Below are positions 15,247 to 46,880 of a DNA stretch of 64,000 nt, piece after piece. Source of the DNA: Candidatus Buchananbacteria bacterium RIFCSPHIGHO2_01_FULL_44_11 (GTDB lineage: Bacteria > Patescibacteriota > Patescibacteriia > Buchananbacterales > UBA6539); NCBI GenBank assembly GCA_001817345.1, contig MHIE01000019.1:10380-74379 (forward strand), written 5' to 3'. Under the pieces are notes generated by a model that was not told the origin of the DNA, ran no database searches, and was given only the letters and a program-made list of their open reading frames with translations. The position numbers were made by a program, and so were the translations under genes. Positions within the stretch are counted from its first letter, which is position 1; each line of letters opens with the position of its first letter.

Positions 15247-15403
15247 GTCATTGCGAACCCCGCCGTTTCTGTTTATCTATAGTCAGACGGAAACGGCGAG
15301 GTGAAGCAATCTGACGCGAAGCGTCATCCCGAGGGAACCGAGGGATCTGTCTTGCCAAGGGGATTGCTTCGTCTCCGCCAGATGGCGGATCCTCGCAATG
15401 ACT
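15247..15403. repeat. MITE-like palindromic element (gtcattgcga...tcgcaatgac family), ORF-less copy
   Basis: Outer IR gtcattgcga / tcgcaatgac and inner IR gaagcaatc / gattgcttc. The 75-bp core is identical to 46790-46865. Same terminal and inner IRs as the GIY-YIG element at 27980-28371. Confidence 0.6.
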
Positions 15404-15404
15404 A

Positions 15405-16103
15405 TTATTTTTGGTTCCATTGCTTAGATAAAAGCCTTGCTAGCTGCCGGCGGAAAACCAGTTGCTGCCTAATGGGGTTAATTAATTCAAGGCAAATATA
15501 AGGAGAAAAATATTTTTGTGGAATATTAGTCACGTATTCCAGCTCGGAAAAATTTTCAACGCCGTGCCAATGCCGGCCGCTGGCTTTAACCGCGCTCAAA
15601 TGATTGCAACCGATTTTATAGTGATAGTCCTCTACTCCCTCTTGGGCAATAAAAAAATTGTCATTAACCTGGCGCCGGTTGATTTCCAGGTGAGACAAGT
15701 CAATGGCTAGACCCCCAAATTTTTTGATAACATCTAAATCGCGAATTTTACTTTGATAACCGTTATTTTCAACAAAAATCTTTTTTCGGTTTTTAAAATT
15801 ATTAAAGTGCTTCAGATACTGGAAATGCATGGTAAAAGCTTTGGTACCAAAACGCTTAATCAAATAGTCAAACTCATGCTCTTTAAGCATGTCGTGGCGG
15901 GCGTGGACATGGGGAATAAATCGGACTGAAGTTTTTTCCAGGGCCTGATAAATTTTTTTCCGCTCCTGAATGTCTGCCCCGGTCAAAAACAAAGAAATTT
16001 CGGTTAACCTAAAACGACGGACCGCCGCAACCATTTTTTGCCAATCAGCCGACCAGGTTACCACTGACGGATAAATTCTGCTTAAAATTTCAGCCTCTTT
16101 CAT
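15405..16103 (-). CDS. Hypothetical protein (possible TIM-barrel sugar isomerase/epimerase-like) within rml cluster
   Basis: 232 aa ORF between rfbD and rfbB; no confident motif. Confidence 0.4.
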   Translation of the reverse strand: MKEAEILSRIYPSVVTWSADWQKMVAAVRRFRLTEISLFLTGADIQERKKIYQALEKTSVRFIPHVHARHDMLKEHEFDYLIKRFGTKAFTMHFQYLKHFNNFKNRKKIFVENNGYQSKIRDLDVIKKFGGLAIDLSHLEINRRQVNDNFFIAQEGVEDYHYKIGCNHLSAVKASGRHWHGVENFSELEYVTNIPQKYFSPYICLELINPIRQQLVFRRQLARLLSKQWNQK

Positions 16104-18458: not shown

Positions 18459-18488
18459 CCGCTGACCCCTGTCGGCGGATTTTTTTTA
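18459..18488 (+). terminator. Putative rho-independent terminator
   Basis: ccgctgac-ccct-gtcggcgg stem (7/8) followed by T8. Confidence 0.4.
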
Positions 18489-18598
18489 CCCCGCACCTTT
18501 TATCCATTTGTCATTTTGTCATTCCGGACTTGATCCGGAATCTGTCAGATCCTGAATCAAGTTCAGGATGACTTTAGAAAGTAAGAAAAGGTGCGGGG
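18488..18598. repeat. 111-bp nested palindromic element (ccccgcacctttt ... aaaaggtgcgggg, containing tgtcattccggacttgatccggaatct hairpins)
   Basis: 13-bp perfect outer IR enclosing two internal hairpins. Related core hairpin at 33262-33290. Confidence 0.5.
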
Positions 18599-18599
18599 T

Positions 18600-19019
18600 T
18601 TAATCAGAATCTATAAAATTTTTTATGTTCTGGACAATACTTTCTACTTCACTAGACGCATAAGATTTTCCGGTCCAAAGTTTGTGGCCATCACCGGCAA
18701 ACCTCGGAATAATATGAAAATGCAAATGGAGCACTGCTTGTCCAGCCAGTTCCCCGCTGTTTATAGTCAAATTAGCATCAGCCGCGCCAACACCGTTAAG
18801 CACTGCTGGATAGATTTTTTTTATCACTTTAATTAAATCAACGAAAGTTGCCTCAGTCGTGTCAGCGATATTTTCCGAATGGACTTTAGACACAACCAGA
18901 GTGTGACCGGGATTAATCGGATTAATGTCTAAAAAGGCCAAAATATTTTGGTCTTCATAGACTTTATAAGCTGGCAACTCACCGGCAACAATTTTACAAA
19001 AAATACAATCTTTTTTCAT
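18600..19019 (-). CDS. HIT family (histidine triad) hydrolase
   Basis: CIFCKI N-terminus and HLHFHIIPR histidine triad. Confidence 0.85.
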   Translation of the reverse strand: MKKDCIFCKIVAGELPAYKVYEDQNILAFLDINPINPGHTLVVSKVHSENIADTTEATFVDLIKVIKKIYPAVLNGVGAADANLTINSGELAGQAVLHLHFHIIPRFAGDGHKLWTGKSYASSEVESIVQNIKNFIDSD

Positions 19020-27600: not shown

Positions 27601-27984
27601 CTAATCAAGCGTCTTTCTCAATTGTAGTGAATTTAGAATAATAAAAGTCAAAGTACCAATACTGTCAACGCCAACATCAAGTAAACTGGCCGACCGACCC
27701 TTGATAAAACTCTGATGCCACTCATCGGTGGCGGCGGACAAAACAGCTAAAAACAAAGCTAAGACTAATCGCTTTTTAGAGCTTAAGCGATACTGACCCA
27801 AGGCCCGAAACAACAAAAAAGTCAAAACAAAATACTCAGCCATATGAGCGATTTTGCGAAAAATCAAATCCCAGAATGGCTCAAGCTCTGATTTTAAATC
27901 CGGCTGGTGGGAAAAATAATAAATCACCCCAAGCCATAAAATTACCACCAGCCAATTAATGAATTGTTTTGTTCTTAGTGTCAT
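27601..27984 (-). CDS. VanZ-like membrane protein
   Basis: Four TM segments and DEWHQSF...R motif. The N-terminus overlaps the terminal IR of the adjacent GIY-YIG element (ATG supplied by cgcaATGACac). Confidence 0.55.
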   Translation of the reverse strand: MTLRTKQFINWLVVILWLGVIYYFSHQPDLKSELEPFWDLIFRKIAHMAEYFVLTFLLFRALGQYRLSSKKRLVLALFLAVLSAATDEWHQSFIKGRSASLLDVGVDSIGTLTFIILNSLQLRKTLD

Positions 27985-28371
27985 TGCGAGGAGTCCTAGT
28001 TGTGCCAAGTTGACGAAGCAATCTAGCTAATCCCAGTCGCCGCTCAAATCTTTCCAATCAGGATTACTAGAATTAATTAAATTAATCTTATCCTGCCGAG
28101 AACCACCTTTAATCTGCTTTTCCCTAGAAATAGCGGCGTTAATATCATTACATTCTTCAAAATAGACTAGCTTGTTGACATTGTATTTACTCGTAAAACC
28201 TTCGATCAATTTATTTTTATGTTCGTAGATTCGTCTTGCCAAATCATTAGTCACGCCAGCATAAGTCACCGTATTACCTTTGTTAGTTAACAAATAAACG
28301 TAATAGTTCCTTGCACCCATATAATAACTAGATTGCTTCGTCGCTCCTTGGGTCGCTCCTCGCAATGACAC
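27980..28371 (-). mobile_element. TIR-bounded element carrying a GIY-YIG nuclease gene, putative autonomous member of the gtcattgcgag MITE family
   Basis: Outer IR gtcattgcgagga / tcctcgcaatgac and perfect 15-bp inner IR gacgaagcaatctag / ctagattgcttcgtc exactly bracket the GIY-YIG ORF. It is inserted with 0 nt spacing between the VanZ-like gene and the GT4 gene. Confidence 0.55.
28027..28323 (-). CDS. GIY-YIG nuclease, YhbQ/UPF0213-like
   Basis: YVYLLTNKGNTVTYAGVTNDLARRIYEHK GIY-YIG motif and KLVYFEE...REKQIKGGSR. The ORF-track N-terminal extension (GTG at 28371) is read-through of the TIR; probable start at MGARNYYVY. Confidence 0.7.
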   Translation of the reverse strand, partial: YMGARNYYVYLLTNKGNTVTYAGVTNDLARRIYEHKNKLIEGFTSKYNVNKLVYFEECNDINAAISREKQIKGGSRQDKINLINSSNPDWKDLSGDWD

Positions 28372-29526
28372 TTAAGTTAGGCTTCTATAAAGTGCGTCAA
28401 GCTGCTGGCCAATTTTATCCCAGTCGTAATTTTGTTCAACTTTATTTCTGCCTTCCAGGCCAAACTGCTTAGCGACGCCCTGATTGACCAATAAGTAATT
28501 GATCTTGGTGGCTAAGTCATCCGGATCCTTGGGTTTGACTAAATAACCGTTGATTTTATCACTAACCACGCTGCGGACACCGGCTAAATTGGTGGCGACC
28601 ACCGGTTTAGCGCAACTCATGCCTTCGACTAAGGTCAAACCAAACGCTTCAGACTTATCAATGGAGGGCAAAACTACCACGTCAGCTAAATTGTAATACT
28701 GGGGTAAGTCAGAGTTAGCGACGTACCCGGTAAAAATTGTTTTGTAATCAATCAAAAGCTGACCGGCTAAGTCCGCATAATGTTTCTTTAGTTCCCCCGC
28801 TCCGACAACGACTAACTTCCATTTATAGGCCGCTTGTTTGAGCCGGCTCATCGCTTCAATCAAATACTCCACACCCTTAAAATAGTGGGCTTTATCCAAG
28901 CCACCGACAAATAAGACCACCGATTCGTCCAGTTCAATCTGATGCCGACTTAACAGCTCGGGATTTTTGGGGCTGGGTAAAAATTTTTGGCTATCAACGC
29001 CATTAGGCACTTCGATAAACTTTTGCGGACTTTTAGTCAAAAGACCGGCGATATTAGAATGCTGAGCATAGTCTAAAGACGTGACAATGACTTTATCAGC
29101 CCGGCGAATTATCCGCGGCAAAATGATTCTATTATGAACCCCAAAAAAAAATTTAAGCAGTCCCTGACCGACAACGTCCATGTGATAATGCAAAACAATT
29201 TTTGCCCCTGACTTTTTCAATTTTTTAGCGTGCAGCCAAATCAATTCCGCCCCGCCAAAATAAGGGTAATGCAGATGAATAATTTCAAAACCTTTAAGCA
29301 AACCGGCCAACCCGGGTGTAAAAGCGGCATTGCCGTATTTAATCAAGGGCTTCAGCCGCCTGATATTTAAATCCGGCAGCTCTTCTTGTTTAATCGGAGC
29401 ATATTCCGGAGTAAAAATAGTGACCTGATGGCCAAGCTTAATCAAAGCCTTGGCGTTATAAGCCGCCACATTACCAATACCGCCGGCATAGGGCGGAAAA
29501 GTTGAAGTAACAATAGCGATTTTCAT
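28372..29526 (-). CDS. Glycosyltransferase family 4
   Basis: MKIAIVTSTFPPYAGGIGNV N-terminus; C-terminal GT-B motifs. Confidence 0.8.
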   Translation of the reverse strand: MKIAIVTSTFPPYAGGIGNVAAYNAKALIKLGHQVTIFTPEYAPIKQEELPDLNIRRLKPLIKYGNAAFTPGLAGLLKGFEIIHLHYPYFGGAELIWLHAKKLKKSGAKIVLHYHMDVVGQGLLKFFFGVHNRIILPRIIRRADKVIVTSLDYAQHSNIAGLLTKSPQKFIEVPNGVDSQKFLPSPKNPELLSRHQIELDESVVLFVGGLDKAHYFKGVEYLIEAMSRLKQAAYKWKLVVVGAGELKKHYADLAGQLLIDYKTIFTGYVANSDLPQYYNLADVVVLPSIDKSEAFGLTLVEGMSCAKPVVATNLAGVRSVVSDKINGYLVKPKDPDDLATKINYLLVNQGVAKQFGLEGRNKVEQNYDWDKIGQQLDALYRSLT

Positions 29527-29689: not shown

Positions 29690-30703
29690 TTAAAACAGTT
29701 GACCACCAATATTCCTGATCCGATTCACTAACTTTTTAGCGTTACCATGGCTTAGTAGCCCAAGATACGACTGAACCGTGTCAATATTCCCCTCTTTCAT
29801 TTGAACATTTCGGAGCATGCGCCTTTTTGTCGCCGTTCGAAGTATGCGATGGTCAAAAAAGTGTACCCACCCCAAAAAATCCACACCAGAGGTAATAGTT
29901 TTAATAAATAGCTTATCAGGATGTAATTCGAGCCGCAATTTGTCCATTAAAAAATTTCTCACCACCAGTAGAGTATTCTGAAGCCATATTTTATCATCAG
30001 ACAAAAAAACAAAATCATCTGCATAACGGATATAATATTTGACTTTAAGCTGGTGTTTTACGAACTGATCGAATTCATTCATGTAAACATTAACCAGTAG
30101 TTGTGAAGTTAGGTTGCCGAGTGGCAAGCCCCTGCCTTTTTCAGTTGAATTAAAACTTGAAACAATTTTGAAGATAAGCCAACGGATATCAACATCCGAA
30201 ATGTAACAACTAATGATTTCAAACAACACTGCTTGATTAATTGAAGCAAAAAATTTTTTAATGTCACACTTTAACACCCACACTGTTCGGGTATGGTTAA
30301 ATGATGCCTTATAGGCAAAATTTCGAAACTGACTAATTGCTTTATGGGTGCCTTTATCAAGACGGCACGAGTACGAATCGGCAATAAAAGTTTTATCGAA
30401 GAACGGATATAAAATTCTATAAATAGCATGATGTAGCAGTCTATCTCGTACGCTGGCTTTATGAATATTCCTTGGTTTGGGATCAGAAATATTAAACGCC
30501 TGGTATGGCGAGTGTTGATAGGTTTTATTTGCTAAATCTTGATAAAGTGTTAAGATATTAGCCATCAAATTCAATTCAAATTGTTGCACGTCTTTGTGTG
30601 ACCGCTTGCCGCACAAAAATTCCTTCCAGGCCTTGAGTAAATTCTCAGCCGAAATAATATCTTCGTACTCATTAGTAAATTGAAGCCTTCCCATATATGC
30701 CAT
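29690..30703 (-). CDS. Diversity-generating retroelement reverse transcriptase
   Basis: RT motifs PKPRNIHKASVRDRLLHHA, LPLGNLTSQLLVNVYM (the [IL]GxxxSQ variant typical of DGR RTs) and IRYADDFVFL (YxDD). 337 aa with no maturase/X domain. TR/VR pair lies adjacent. Confidence 0.85.
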   Translation of the reverse strand: MAYMGRLQFTNEYEDIISAENLLKAWKEFLCGKRSHKDVQQFELNLMANILTLYQDLANKTYQHSPYQAFNISDPKPRNIHKASVRDRLLHHAIYRILYPFFDKTFIADSYSCRLDKGTHKAISQFRNFAYKASFNHTRTVWVLKCDIKKFFASINQAVLFEIISCYISDVDIRWLIFKIVSSFNSTEKGRGLPLGNLTSQLLVNVYMNEFDQFVKHQLKVKYYIRYADDFVFLSDDKIWLQNTLLVVRNFLMDKLRLELHPDKLFIKTITSGVDFLGWVHFFDHRILRTATKRRMLRNVQMKEGNIDTVQSYLGLLSHGNAKKLVNRIRNIGGQLF

Positions 30704-30727
30704 ATTCTACCCCCCCACCCAGCGATT

Positions 30728-31090
30728 TTGCCAGTGTTACAAAAAATAAAAAGTGCTTATCTACTATGGTACGGCTACTACCAAACACTACCAAAAACCC
30801 AGCGCTATTCACTGGGTCAAAGAATTGATACGTTATTTATAGAGATTATCGAAGCGGTTGCCACCGCCAGTTTTTTGGTACGGCAGGAAAAAATACCCTA
30901 TGTTCGACGAGCCATCCAAAAACTCGACACGCTCAAAATACTGTTGATGGTATTGTGGGAAACAAAGACGTTAGACAATAAAAAATACATAGCTCTGTCG
31001 GCGCCACTAGATGAAATCGGTAAAATGCTAGGCGGCTGGAACGGCCAATTAGTAAAACAAAACTCCCTCGAAAGGCCGAGGGAGAAATAA
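30728..31090 (+). CDS. Avd-like accessory variability determinant (four-helix bundle)
   Basis: Basic ~120 aa protein. C-terminal ...LDEIGKMLGGWNGQLVKQN parallels Bordetella bAvd ...IAEVGRILGSWIARVNRK. It lies between RT and TR. No in-frame ATG; TTG (30728) or GTG (30734) start assumed. ORF-track start 30680 overlaps the RT start. Confidence 0.55.
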   Translation: MPVLQKIKSAYLLWYGYYQTLPKTQRYSLGQRIDTLFIEIIEAVATASFLVRQEKIPYVRRAIQKLDTLKILLMVLWETKTLDNKKYIALSAPLDEIGKMLGGWNGQLVKQNSLERPREK

Positions 31091-31098
31091 AGTCAGTG

Positions 31099-31232
31099 GC
31101 TGGGACGAGGAACAGGAATCCGTTCTCACGATTCCACCTGTCGTCGGGGTTGCCGTTGAATGTGTTCAACCAGCGACCATCGTCGTTACGGTTCAGACCG
31201 AGCAGGTTCAGGTTGCCGTTCGAGTCGGTAAT
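31099..31232 (-). repeat. DGR template repeat (TR)
   Basis: 134-bp homolog of 31591-31724. Carries A (on - strand) at all 22 mismatch positions. Encodes Asn(AAC)-rich ...SNGNLNLLGLNRNDDGRWLNTFNGNPDDRWNRENGFLFLVPA. Confidence 0.85.
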
Positions 31233-31471
31233 ATGTACAGTATGTCATCTATGCCACCGCCCCTTGAGTACTCTTAGGGTTGTATCGTATTTGGCATCGT
31301 AATGCCCTAACACACTGTACCAAGTAACTTCGTTTTTTAGCACCACATCCTACGCTATCTCAATCCGCCAACCGGCGGACGGAGATACTCTGAGATATAT
31401 GGATACTGGATTCGGTAGCGGAAAGCCTTAACTATCCGCATATTCACCTACTACCATTTTTAGTATAACAG

Positions 31472-31514
31472 AAAATAAATCACCCCGCATCTTCATACAA
31501 GACAGATGCGGGGC
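31472..31514 (-). terminator. GC-rich hairpin plus T-run 70-110 nt downstream of VR (terminator and/or DGR homing-associated stem-loop)
   Basis: ccccgcatc...gatgcgggg 9-bp stem followed on - strand by atttatttt. Confidence 0.4.
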
Positions 31515-31580
31515 GTTGTTCGGAAAGTCCAAGGACTAAATCCAAGGGTCAAAAAGACCCAAGAACCCAAGTCCAAAGGA

Positions 31581-32205
31581 CTAGTTACTTGCTGGGACGA
31601 GGAACAGGAATCCGCGCCCACGACTCCACCCGCCGTCGGGGCGGCCGTCGAAAGTGTTCAACCAGCGACCACCGACGCAACGGCGCAGACCGAGCAGGCT
31701 CAGGAAGCCGCACGAGACGGAAACCGGCTGGTGCATGACGATCAGAGCCCACAGCCCCATCTGTTCGAGGTCTTCGTCTGAGAACATCTCGCGCACATAC
31801 GGTGCCAACTCGACCGAGGGGTCAAGATAGCCGCGCTTGGCCGCCTCAACCCTGATATTCTCGTTGGTGCGTTTGTCGTCCTCGAACTCGTCGCCCATGA
31901 TAAGCGCAAGCTTGTAGGCCTTGCCGTCGGTGGCGACGAACTCTTTACCGCGAAGCAGTTCCTGGGCGTAGTCGTCGACACGATCACCCTGGACTTCGAG
32001 ATCGGTGATGTGCTGGTCGCCTGAACGACCGTTGGTCGTGACCTCAAAGGTCTTGGGTACGCCGAACGGATTTTCTCCGCGCAGGAATCGCTTCAAGCGA
32101 CGGAGCCACATCGTGCCTTTCGGGCCAGCGAGTTTGTCCTCGATATCTTTTCTCGGTCCCTGAGTGTCAGAGAGCGAGAGGTTGCCGAGCATACCTTGCG
32201 ACATG
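31581..32205 (-). CDS. DGR target (variable) protein, GC-rich, 208 aa
   Basis: VR is the last ~45 codons (...SCGFLSLLGLRRCVGGRWLNTFDGRPDGGWSRGRGFLFLVPASN*). AGGAGG RBS 6 nt upstream of ATG at 32205 and extended -10 TGgCATAAT. The ORF-track N-terminal extension into 32288 is not supported. Confidence 0.7.
31591..31724 (-). repeat. DGR variable repeat (VR) at 3' end of target gene
   Basis: 22 of 22 differences from TR fall at TR adenines. It ends 7 nt before the stop codon. Confidence 0.85.
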
Positions 32206-32283
32206 GTCAGTCCTCCTCTTCTTTCATTGAGATTATGCCAGCGGACTACTAGGTAGTCATAGCCAGAAAACACTGATCCACAT

Positions 32284-32365
32284 GTCATTGCGAGCGAAGC
32301 GAAGCAATCTCTTTGGTTGTAGATTGCTTCGTCCCCCGACGTAAAGTCGGGGTCCTCGCAATGAC
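32284..32365. repeat. Minimal (82 bp) member of the gtcattgcgag MITE family
   Basis: gtcattgcgag-cgaagcgaagcaatct...agattgcttcgtcc...cctcgcaatgac; the inner IRs are nearly juxtaposed. Located just upstream of the DGR target promoter. Confidence 0.5.
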
Positions 32366-33261: not shown

Positions 33262-33338
33262 CTGTCATTCCGCACTTGATGCGGAATCTAGGGTTAATCC
33301 GTACAAACCCTGGATTCCCGCTTACGCGGGAATGACAC
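33262..33338. repeat. Cluster of three hairpins bounded by tgtcattcc / ggaatgaca
   Basis: ttccgcacttgatgcggaa, tagggtt...aaccctgg and ttcccgcttacgcgggaa stems. The first hairpin is a variant of the 18519-18545 hairpin (ttccggacttgatccggaa). Confidence 0.4.
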
Positions 33339-33420
33339 GGGGTGGGAATGACAAGAATAGCGTAAAAATATTAAAGCGATAGGCTAAAGTCTAGAATTTA
33401 TAACCCATCAAAAAGGGTCT

Positions 33421-46751: not shown

Positions 46752-46880
46752 GTCATTGCGAGGAGCGAACGGCAGTGAGTGACGAAGCAATCTGACGCGA
46801 AGCGTCATCCCGAGGGAACCGAGGGATCTGTCTTGCCAAGGGGATTGCTTCGTCCCGATTCCGTCGGGACTCGCAATGAC
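46752..46880. repeat. MITE-like gtcattgcgag family element, ORF-less copy
   Basis: Same termini and identical 75-bp core as 15247-15403. Internal hairpin gtcccgattccgtcgggac. Confidence 0.6.

Follow-up and report, generated by a model that had tools for sequence, protein, structure and literature searches.

Can a small nuclease gene that lies between two inverted repeats, packed tightly between two other genes, be a mobile element in its own right? The question is raised by an ~390-bp block (27980–28369) in a 64,000-nucleotide stretch of DNA, hereafter the window, from a Candidatus Buchananbacteria genome of the Candidate Phyla Radiation (CPR/Patescibacteria; OGY45485.1 and its neighbors). 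An original prediction took the block for the autonomous member of a family of miniature inverted-repeat transposable elements (MITEs), with a YhbQ-like GIY-YIG nuclease as its only cargo and gene-free copies of the repeats at three other sites as its deletion derivatives. By sequence, the gene belongs to the Ssn nucleases, a family of single-domain GIY-YIG proteins, and its activity is predicted; we also find that the gene and its two repeats form a discrete block of ~390 bp that was inserted on an evolutionary timescale. The locus is likely to be an Ssn module, in which the repeats are this lineage's version of the hairpin cognate to the nuclease and the block, once inserted, became fixed, so that the whole resembles a REPIN–RAYT system.

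The nuclease and its flanking hairpins

The reference for such modules is SsnA of Neisseria meningitidis, a 94-amino-acid single-domain GIY-YIG protein (CDD cd10448, GIY-YIG_unchar_3) (Chenal et al., Nat Commun 2025, PMC11893778). SsnA binds one strand of a hairpin repeat, the NTS (CGTCATTCCCGCGMAVGCGGGAATCYRG), solely as single-stranded DNA (ssDNA) and cuts just upstream of it; cleavage that is restricted to ssDNA, strand specific, and placed a few nucleotides 5′ of a hairpin has been demonstrated for four homologs. The ssnA gene is itself flanked by NTS, and thousands of homologs are flanked by related hairpins of 20–50 nt, the Ssn-related motifs (SRMs) (Chenal et al. 2025). Our own comparisons use the N. 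gonorrhoeae ortholog, not N. meningitidis SsnA itself. The N. gonorrhoeae chromosome carries one homolog, a 94-amino-acid open reading frame (ORF) that lies between canonical NTS copies. This 2.17-Mb chromosome (NZ_CP119140.1, our L129) is labeled a plasmid in the plasmid collection.

The window gene encodes 97 amino acids from an ATG at 28320, not the 99 first proposed. Its frame is open further upstream, across the repeat and as far as a GTG at 28371, and gene callers therefore report 114 amino acids; such read-through of the repeat explains the recurrent spurious N-terminal extensions in the annotation of these ORFs. The ORF contains a full-length GIY-YIG domain (PF01541, E = 7e-17), which spans residues 22–97 of the extended form and hence nearly the whole protein, with no additional domain. 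The window protein shares 48% identity with the N. gonorrhoeae SsnA ortholog (BLASTP, 90 bits, E = 3e-30), and in a tblastn search against the single N. gonorrhoeae locus it scores E = 6e-20, where Chenal et al. (2025) count as homologs all matches with tblastn E < 1e-10. Alignment with homologs is full-length. Of the catalytic residues, Y9, Y20, G22, H34, E67, and N86 do not vary among 16 aligned sequences, including the Neisseria protein, and R30 hardly does.

The YhbQ-like assignment of the nuclease did not survive. The protein shares its size and the GIY-YIG fold with the UPF0213/YhbQ proteins, but its match to the UPF0213 member BH0048 (PDB 1ZG2) is marginal (17.5 bits, E = 0.04), which, set against the strong match to the SsnA ortholog, places it in the Ssn family and leaves UPF0213 as a separate subfamily. 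This marginal match is the only one found in a sequence search of the PDB, in which no Ssn structure is deposited. The nuclease has no match in PADLOC.

The repeats had been described as separate outer and inner inverted repeats. Both are exact, the outer GTCATTGCGAGG at 27980–27991 (plus strand) and 28358–28369 (minus strand) and the inner GACGAAGCAATCTAG at 28012–28026 (plus) and 28328–28342 (minus), and both are enriched: the window has 12 matches to the pattern of the GTCATTGCGAGG type, where dinucleotide shuffles have a mean of 4.0, and six to that of the GACGAAGCAATCTAG type (shuffle mean, 1.2), neither count being reached in any of 100 shuffles. The outer repeat can be extended to 16 nt (AGTGTCATTGCGAGGA). 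They are not, however, two pairs of repeats: outer and inner are the 5′ and 3′ halves of a single hairpin unit of ~40 nt, present in two inverted copies, one per strand, with the GTCAT ends facing outward. The unit can be written T-GTC-ATTGC-GAG(GA)-[variable]-(GA)CGAA-GCAAT-C, that is, a 5-bp lower stem (ATTGC/GCAAT), a conserved internal loop (GAG/CGA(A)), and a freely variable upper hairpin; the conserved T at position −1 of the upstream unit lies at window position 28370. No family in Rfam matches the units, at either gathering or permissive thresholds. From their sequence and placement, the two flanking units are probably the hairpin that the encoded nuclease recognizes.

The proposed absence of intergenic spacing holds. 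The stop codon of the GT4 gene (TAA, 28372–28374) sits 2 nt from one unit, and the VanZ ATG (27982–27984, minus strand), which is also the start used by the source annotation, is part of the GTCAT of the other. The nuclease gene's own stop codon (28027–28029) abuts the end of the inner repeat at 28026; it had been stated to lie inside this repeat.

A scan of the window for GTCAY, a 5-nt stem directly after it, and the complement of that stem gives 21 matches, where shuffles average 3.4. Of these matches, 15 (one nested in another) group into six intergenic clusters, one being the pair around the gene; the remainder are intragenic and look like chance matches. Beyond the gene-flanking pair there are thus five clusters with 13 units in 64 kb, all intergenic: the three ORF-less sites already noticed (15247–15402, 32284–32365, and 46752–46880) and two further doublets with different stems (18518–18572 and 33264–33352). 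In each of the six clusters the first unit is on the plus strand and the last on the minus strand.

Gene, repeats, and insertion site in relatives

The link between nuclease and repeats that had been proposed for the window holds far beyond it. There are >3000 relatives of the window protein at about 60%–80% identity in >15 phyla, among them Patescibacteria, Chloroflexota, Nitrospirota, Cyanobacteria, Bacillota, and Pseudomonadota. A sense unit lies within 200 nt upstream of the gene in 66 of 84 homologous copies and an antisense unit downstream in 67, with units on both sides in 55, where chance would give ~0.05 units per kilobase. For the 40 blocks in which both ends are defined, length varies from 346 to 505 bp (median, 390). 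A T precedes the block in 36–37 of these 40 cases, giving a conserved TGTCAT end, and the flanks are otherwise unconserved.

In a collection of 61 units gathered by their anchors only, with pairing not required, nine stem types occur and all five lower-stem pairs are formed in 53 units, compared with 17 of 61 when the partners are shuffled. This covariation favors a hairpin. The stem sequence also varies with the protein: where the residue following REKQIKx is G, the stems are of the ATTGC type in 47 of 48 loci, and where it is W, the stems are of other types in 24 of 26. Gene and flanks therefore travel together, whatever the cause. The same residue was also considered as a correlate of the GA internal loop; this was rejected, since it is the stem sequence that it tracks.

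The discreteness of the block, a part of the original prediction, is borne out by two comparisons. A copy 81% identical to that of the window lies in an unrelated context, downstream from enolase (in L003); DNA similarity begins at AGTGTCAT and ends at ATGACA. This enolase-linked copy is orthologous between two species. Second, an Acetobacteraceae genome (L082) has two paralogs 1.8 kb apart that are 88% identical over 384 nt with the same bounds, and nothing else is shared between them.

Filled and empty sites were also found at the junction of the VanZ and GT4 genes, where a search for them had been suggested. The gene order GT4–VanZ–GT4b is kept in about 25 metagenomic relatives, none of which has a GIY-YIG gene at the junction, and in ten of them (L086, L090, L096, L098, L100, L102, L105, L106, L108, and L115) the GT4 stop and VanZ start are 0–16 nt apart or overlap. 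In other relatives this place is taken by a doublet of SRMs that face inward (L089), by one SRM (L085), or by hairpin-rich inserts (L084, L088, and L103). In L103 the junction is occupied by a palindrome, aatcccgcacctttc … gaaaggtgcgggatt, similar to one that surrounds a gene-free doublet in the window (see below). In L095 (5147–5604) there is a 458-nt insert encoding a 113-amino-acid DUF559/MTES_1575 endonuclease-like protein (PF04480, E = 1.5e-37); this gene is flanked by G+C-rich inverted repeats of its own and represents a second type of small nuclease at the same site.

The coexistence of empty and filled sites would also be expected of a free-standing GIY-YIG homing endonuclease that cuts double-stranded DNA (dsDNA) at gene-less sites and is copied there by break repair, leaving the repeats as remnants of its target. 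The GIY-YIG domain and the sole NCBIfam match, a weak one (TIGR01453, a model of group I intron endonucleases), point in the same direction. That match scores 18 bits, however, far under the 56-bit cut-off; no SRM-like target is present at the empty GT4|VanZ junctions; and the 97 amino acids include no DNA-binding extension, whereas characterized GIY-YIG homing enzymes are modular and the characterized relatives of the window protein do not cut dsDNA (Chenal et al. 2025). We regard homing of this kind as very improbable.

At the level of strains, the element is present in every one of the 15 contigs that have an identical GT4 protein. In the nine loci read from these contigs, identity to the window is 99.8% or more and there are zero indels.

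Possible spread of the proposed module

If the block were a transposon of a novel type, active and autonomous, in which the GIY-YIG nuclease excises and inserts the element and the doublets are MITE-like derivatives mobilized in trans, this would account for several of these observations: the inverted termini with their conserved TGTCAT end, the homology confined to the block both between contexts and between paralogs, the GT4|VanZ junctions that are empty in relatives, and the protein identity of 60%–70% over >15 phyla. With outward units, the predicted nicks would moreover bracket the whole element. Strains of Smithella with an identical Ssn protein provide a case of presence and absence of a doublet, within an indel of ~126 nt.

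The larger part of the evidence points the other way, and we think such a transposon unlikely. The element encodes no second gene and no transposase, whether DDE, HUH/Y1, or serine or tyrosine recombinase; the nuclease is its sole ORF, as had been noted in setting it apart from the classical insertion sequences. GIY-YIG nucleases hydrolyze DNA, and we know of no strand-transfer, joining, or covalent-intermediate chemistry among them. There is one copy of the gene in the window, and a search for insertion polymorphism at this locus found none in the 15 contigs. Nor did we find an identical Ssn protein in several contexts: in four other species (P0065, P0004, P0102, and P0120), each protein occupies one locus across many samples. 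Phages almost lack the family (two weak matches in 50,697 records), and 34 of the 35 matches in the plasmid collection are non-mobilizable. We detected no target-site duplications at the 40 elements with both ends defined, direct repeats at three offsets being no commoner than in shuffled partners, although this is not decisive because IS200/IS605 elements also lack them.

The proposed origin of the gene-free doublets by internal deletion is rejected: their spacers, inner sequences, and upper hairpins differ from those of the element, as do the stems in two cases. The Smithella indel exceeds the doublet by 33 nt on one side, and the strains also differ in an orthologous unit, the upper hairpin of which has been replaced by one resembling the new doublet. 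Repeat turnover, here and in the mosaic clusters of the window (see below), looks more like conversion between copies than like cut-and-paste. The evidence is against an active family of insertion sequences or MITEs, and the mobility hypothesis is unproven. What stands of the mobile family as first envisaged is a discrete inserted block with empty sites in relatives; recent transposition of the gene and an encoded strand-transfer enzyme were not found, and the one copy in the window is fixed.

Comparison with known systems leads to a similar picture. The window locus shares with Ssn/NTS a small single-domain nuclease (family size, ~95 amino acids), oriented hairpin repeats to either side of the gene, units with the same (Y)GTCAT 5′ end and AATCYRG 3′ end, and dispersed intergenic copies, which here lie in a glycosylation region and echo the Neisseria clusters near surface-protein genes. 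It differs in the hairpin itself, the NTS being a contiguous stem of 8–9 bp and the flanking units of the window having an upper hairpin of 5–50 nt set on the lower stem and loop described above, as well as in its host and in that activity is here predicted from sequence. It is these likenesses, together with the protein identity, that lead us to an Ssn/SRM module.

REPIN–RAYT systems, too, have a single, stable copy of the gene between inverted copies of the hairpin repeat that belongs to it, intergenic inverted doublets at dispersed sites, no target-site duplications, and a repeat recognized as an ssDNA hairpin, the last being a prediction for the window protein. The likeness is one of genomic behavior and not of homology: RAYT proteins are HUH/Y1 enzymes and the window protein is a hydrolytic GIY-YIG nuclease, for which the cut-and-rejoin chemistry of RAYT and TnpA is therefore unavailable. 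IS200/IS605 elements and their MITE-like derivatives resemble the window element in small size, hairpin-forming ends, ssDNA logic, and the lack of target-site duplications. Unlike them, the window element has no TnpA, it is bounded by inverted copies that lie on opposite strands, where they have two distinct hairpins on the same strand, and it does not occur as multiple identical copies in different contexts. The REPIN–RAYT pair, rather than the insertion sequence, thus offers the closest working analogy.

In the Ssn/SRM module that we favor, an SRM–ssn–SRM block of ~390 bp would have been inserted where the GT4 and VanZ genes had been tightly spaced or overlapping, in an ancestor of the Buchananbacteria population, and the block is now fixed there. 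Wherever replication forks or DNA uptake expose single strands, the hairpins would extrude and the nuclease would nick the ssDNA just outside them. Since the units face outward, these nicks are predicted to fall immediately outside the element, one per strand. Through recombinational repair between SRM copies, units and the intervening DNA could then be spread, exchanged, or lost. By analogy with Neisseria, a role in limiting recombination of incoming DNA is plausible for the CPR host.

Several points weigh against this reading. In nearest-neighbor DNA folding, whose parameters disregard sheared G–A pairs, the two flanking units fold no better than shuffles (z = 0.69 and 0.10). Neither matches the published degenerate SRM pattern, HGTCWYN(0-2)YYVSBRHN(0-5)WNVSBRGN(0-2)RNCYNB, which is a search tool rather than a definition; among homologs, only two of 82 loci match it, compared with nine matches in 3.2 kb of the Neisseria locus. 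Flanking units face inward in N. gonorrhoeae and outward in the window, where GTCAT is distal to the gene, and the geometry studied experimentally is therefore not that of the window. The Fisher test of G or W against stem type (P = 4e-16) ignores shared ancestry. The genomes with empty junctions are only 45%–74% identical to the window in GT4 and none is a strain-level relative for this gene, so the insertion is only loosely dated. Finally, the repair between SRM copies is a step that we infer.

The low match rate of the published pattern implies that a large clade uses a hairpin variant that the pattern does not capture, in which a variable upper hairpin and a GA-rich internal loop stand on an ATTGC stem. 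Surveys relying on the pattern would thus under-count the association of gene and repeat. A literature search yielded no paper that prints an ATTGC-type motif.

Both the architecture and the enzyme family are already published, as is the likeness to an insertion sequence, this last for NTS–ssnA–NTS and as a hypothesis only, in the Discussion of Chenal et al. (2025), the main text of which never names CPR or Patescibacteria. We found no later work on Ssn mobility in a literature search. The additions made here are the CPR example, the widespread hairpin variant, the outward orientation, the block-limited homology, the empty sites, and the covariation of protein and stem. They place a CPR genome, and a large clade of homologs in >15 phyla, within the Ssn/SRM system described in 2025. 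The outward units, the limits of homology, and the residue–stem covariation provide handles on how such nucleases read their hairpins and on whether they spread them.

It is conceivable, though we consider it doubtful, that SRM–ssn–SRM is after all a genuinely autonomous mobile element of ~390 bp, belonging to an undemonstrated class and having a 97-amino-acid ssDNA nickase as its sole protein. The nickase would cut each strand just outside the outward-facing terminal hairpins and so start the copying of its own element, host replication or recombination would complete the move, and the gene-free doublets would be landing pads or passengers. If true, this would explain the abundance of small GIY-YIG genes and of GTCATTGCGAG…GAAGCAATC repeats in CPR and in many other phyla.

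Gene-free clusters and neighboring features

The features of the locus, the gene-free clusters, and the adjoining genes are collected in Table 1.

Table 1. Positions of the nuclease gene, hairpin units, gene-free clusters, and adjoining retroelement in the window
Feature	Position	Strand	Remarks
ssn-type gene	28027..28320	-	97-aa single-domain GIY-YIG; ATG at 28320, stop TAG 28029-28027
SRM-like unit upstream of gene, same sense	28331..28369	-	(T)GTC-ATTGC-GAGGA-gcgacccaaggagc-GACGAA-GCAAT-C
SRM-like unit downstream of gene, antisense	27980..28023	+	(T)GTC-ATTGC-GAGGA-gtcctagttgtgccaagtt-GACGAA-GCAAT-C
Gene-free SRM cluster, three units	15247..15402	.	Occupies entire gap between two genes
Unit of this cluster, ATTGC	15247-15311	+	
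Unit of this cluster, ATCCC	15323-15347	+	
Unit of this cluster, ATTGC	15362-15402	-	
Gene-free SRM doublet	18518..18572	.	Contiguous stems ATTCCGGA and ATCCTGAA
Gene-free SRM doublet	32284..32365	.	Adjoins start codon of target gene of diversity-generating retroelement (DGR)
Unit of this doublet, short ATTGC	32284-32309	+	With GCGAAGC
Unit of this doublet, ATTGC	32322-32365	-	With G+C-rich upper hairpin
Gene-free SRM doublet	33264..33352	.	Neisseria NTS type
Gene-free SRM cluster, three units	46752..46880	.	Arranged as in 15247-15402
DGR reverse transcriptase	29690-30703	-	
DGR bAvd accessory gene	about 30734-31090	+	PF22296 in source annotation
DGR template repeat	31091-31231		
DGR variable repeat	31583-31723		At 3' end of ORF 31581-32288

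The six clusters lie in a region for glycosylation of the cell envelope. Their stems vary by unit (ATTGC, ATCCC, ATTCCGGA, ATCCTGAA, ATTCCGC, and ATTCCCGCG). The clusters at 15247–15402 and 46752–46880 have an identical core of ~72 nt and identical termini and differ in their upper hairpins, which are unrelated; they are mosaics. A swap of upper hairpins between otherwise identical copies is also seen between L137 and L138 (1884–1929). Upper hairpins of the G+C-rich types TCCGCC-N4-GGCGGA and CCCGAC-N4-GTCGGG are recurrent and are found in other phyla too.

The gene-free units include some that fold well as DNA. The doublet at 33264–33352 folds at −9.0 kcal/mol (z = −6.0), that at 18518–18572 at −7.6 kcal/mol (z = −4.2), and the minus-strand unit of 32284–32365 at −10.2 kcal/mol (z = −3.1). 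The GCGAAGC of the short unit form is an unusually stable DNA mini-hairpin. The unit TGTCATTCCCGCGTAAGCGGGAATCCAG (33310–33337, minus strand) approximates the Neisseria NTS consensus and is the sole unit in the window that matches the published SRM pattern. Because the doublets at 18518–18572 and 33264–33352 have NTS-type stems, the residue–stem covariation leads one to expect for them a W-type Ssn, not the G-type protein of the window, and a second ssn gene is predicted elsewhere in the genome.

Could the units be host regulatory elements (terminators, stabilizers of transcripts, or protein-binding sites), with the nuclease nearby only by coincidence? They are intergenic, they supply the start codons of two neighboring genes, and two doublets are associated with terminator-like structures, one lying within a palindrome and another following a hairpin. 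The doublets are found, however, between genes of every relative direction (co-directional, convergent, and divergent), and the units flank most of the 84 homologous copies in a fixed orientation across phyla, with a stem type that covaries with a protein residue. Add to this the lack of any Rfam match and the finding that characterized Ssn proteins do not bind RNA (Chenal et al. 2025), and a purely regulatory origin becomes hardly credible.

The palindrome just mentioned has 14-bp arms, accccgcacctttt … aaaaggtgcggggt, and stands between convergent genes (18480–18620), the doublet at 18518–18572 forming its loop. The start codons supplied by GTCAT are the annotated ATGs of VanZ and of the DGR target ORF (32286–32288). 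In two cases, GT4 and an ORF ending at 15405, the distance between the TAA stop and a unit is exactly 2 nt. The DGR that adjoins the element (29690–32288) is complete, and 23 of the 26 mismatches between its template and variable repeats are at template adenines.

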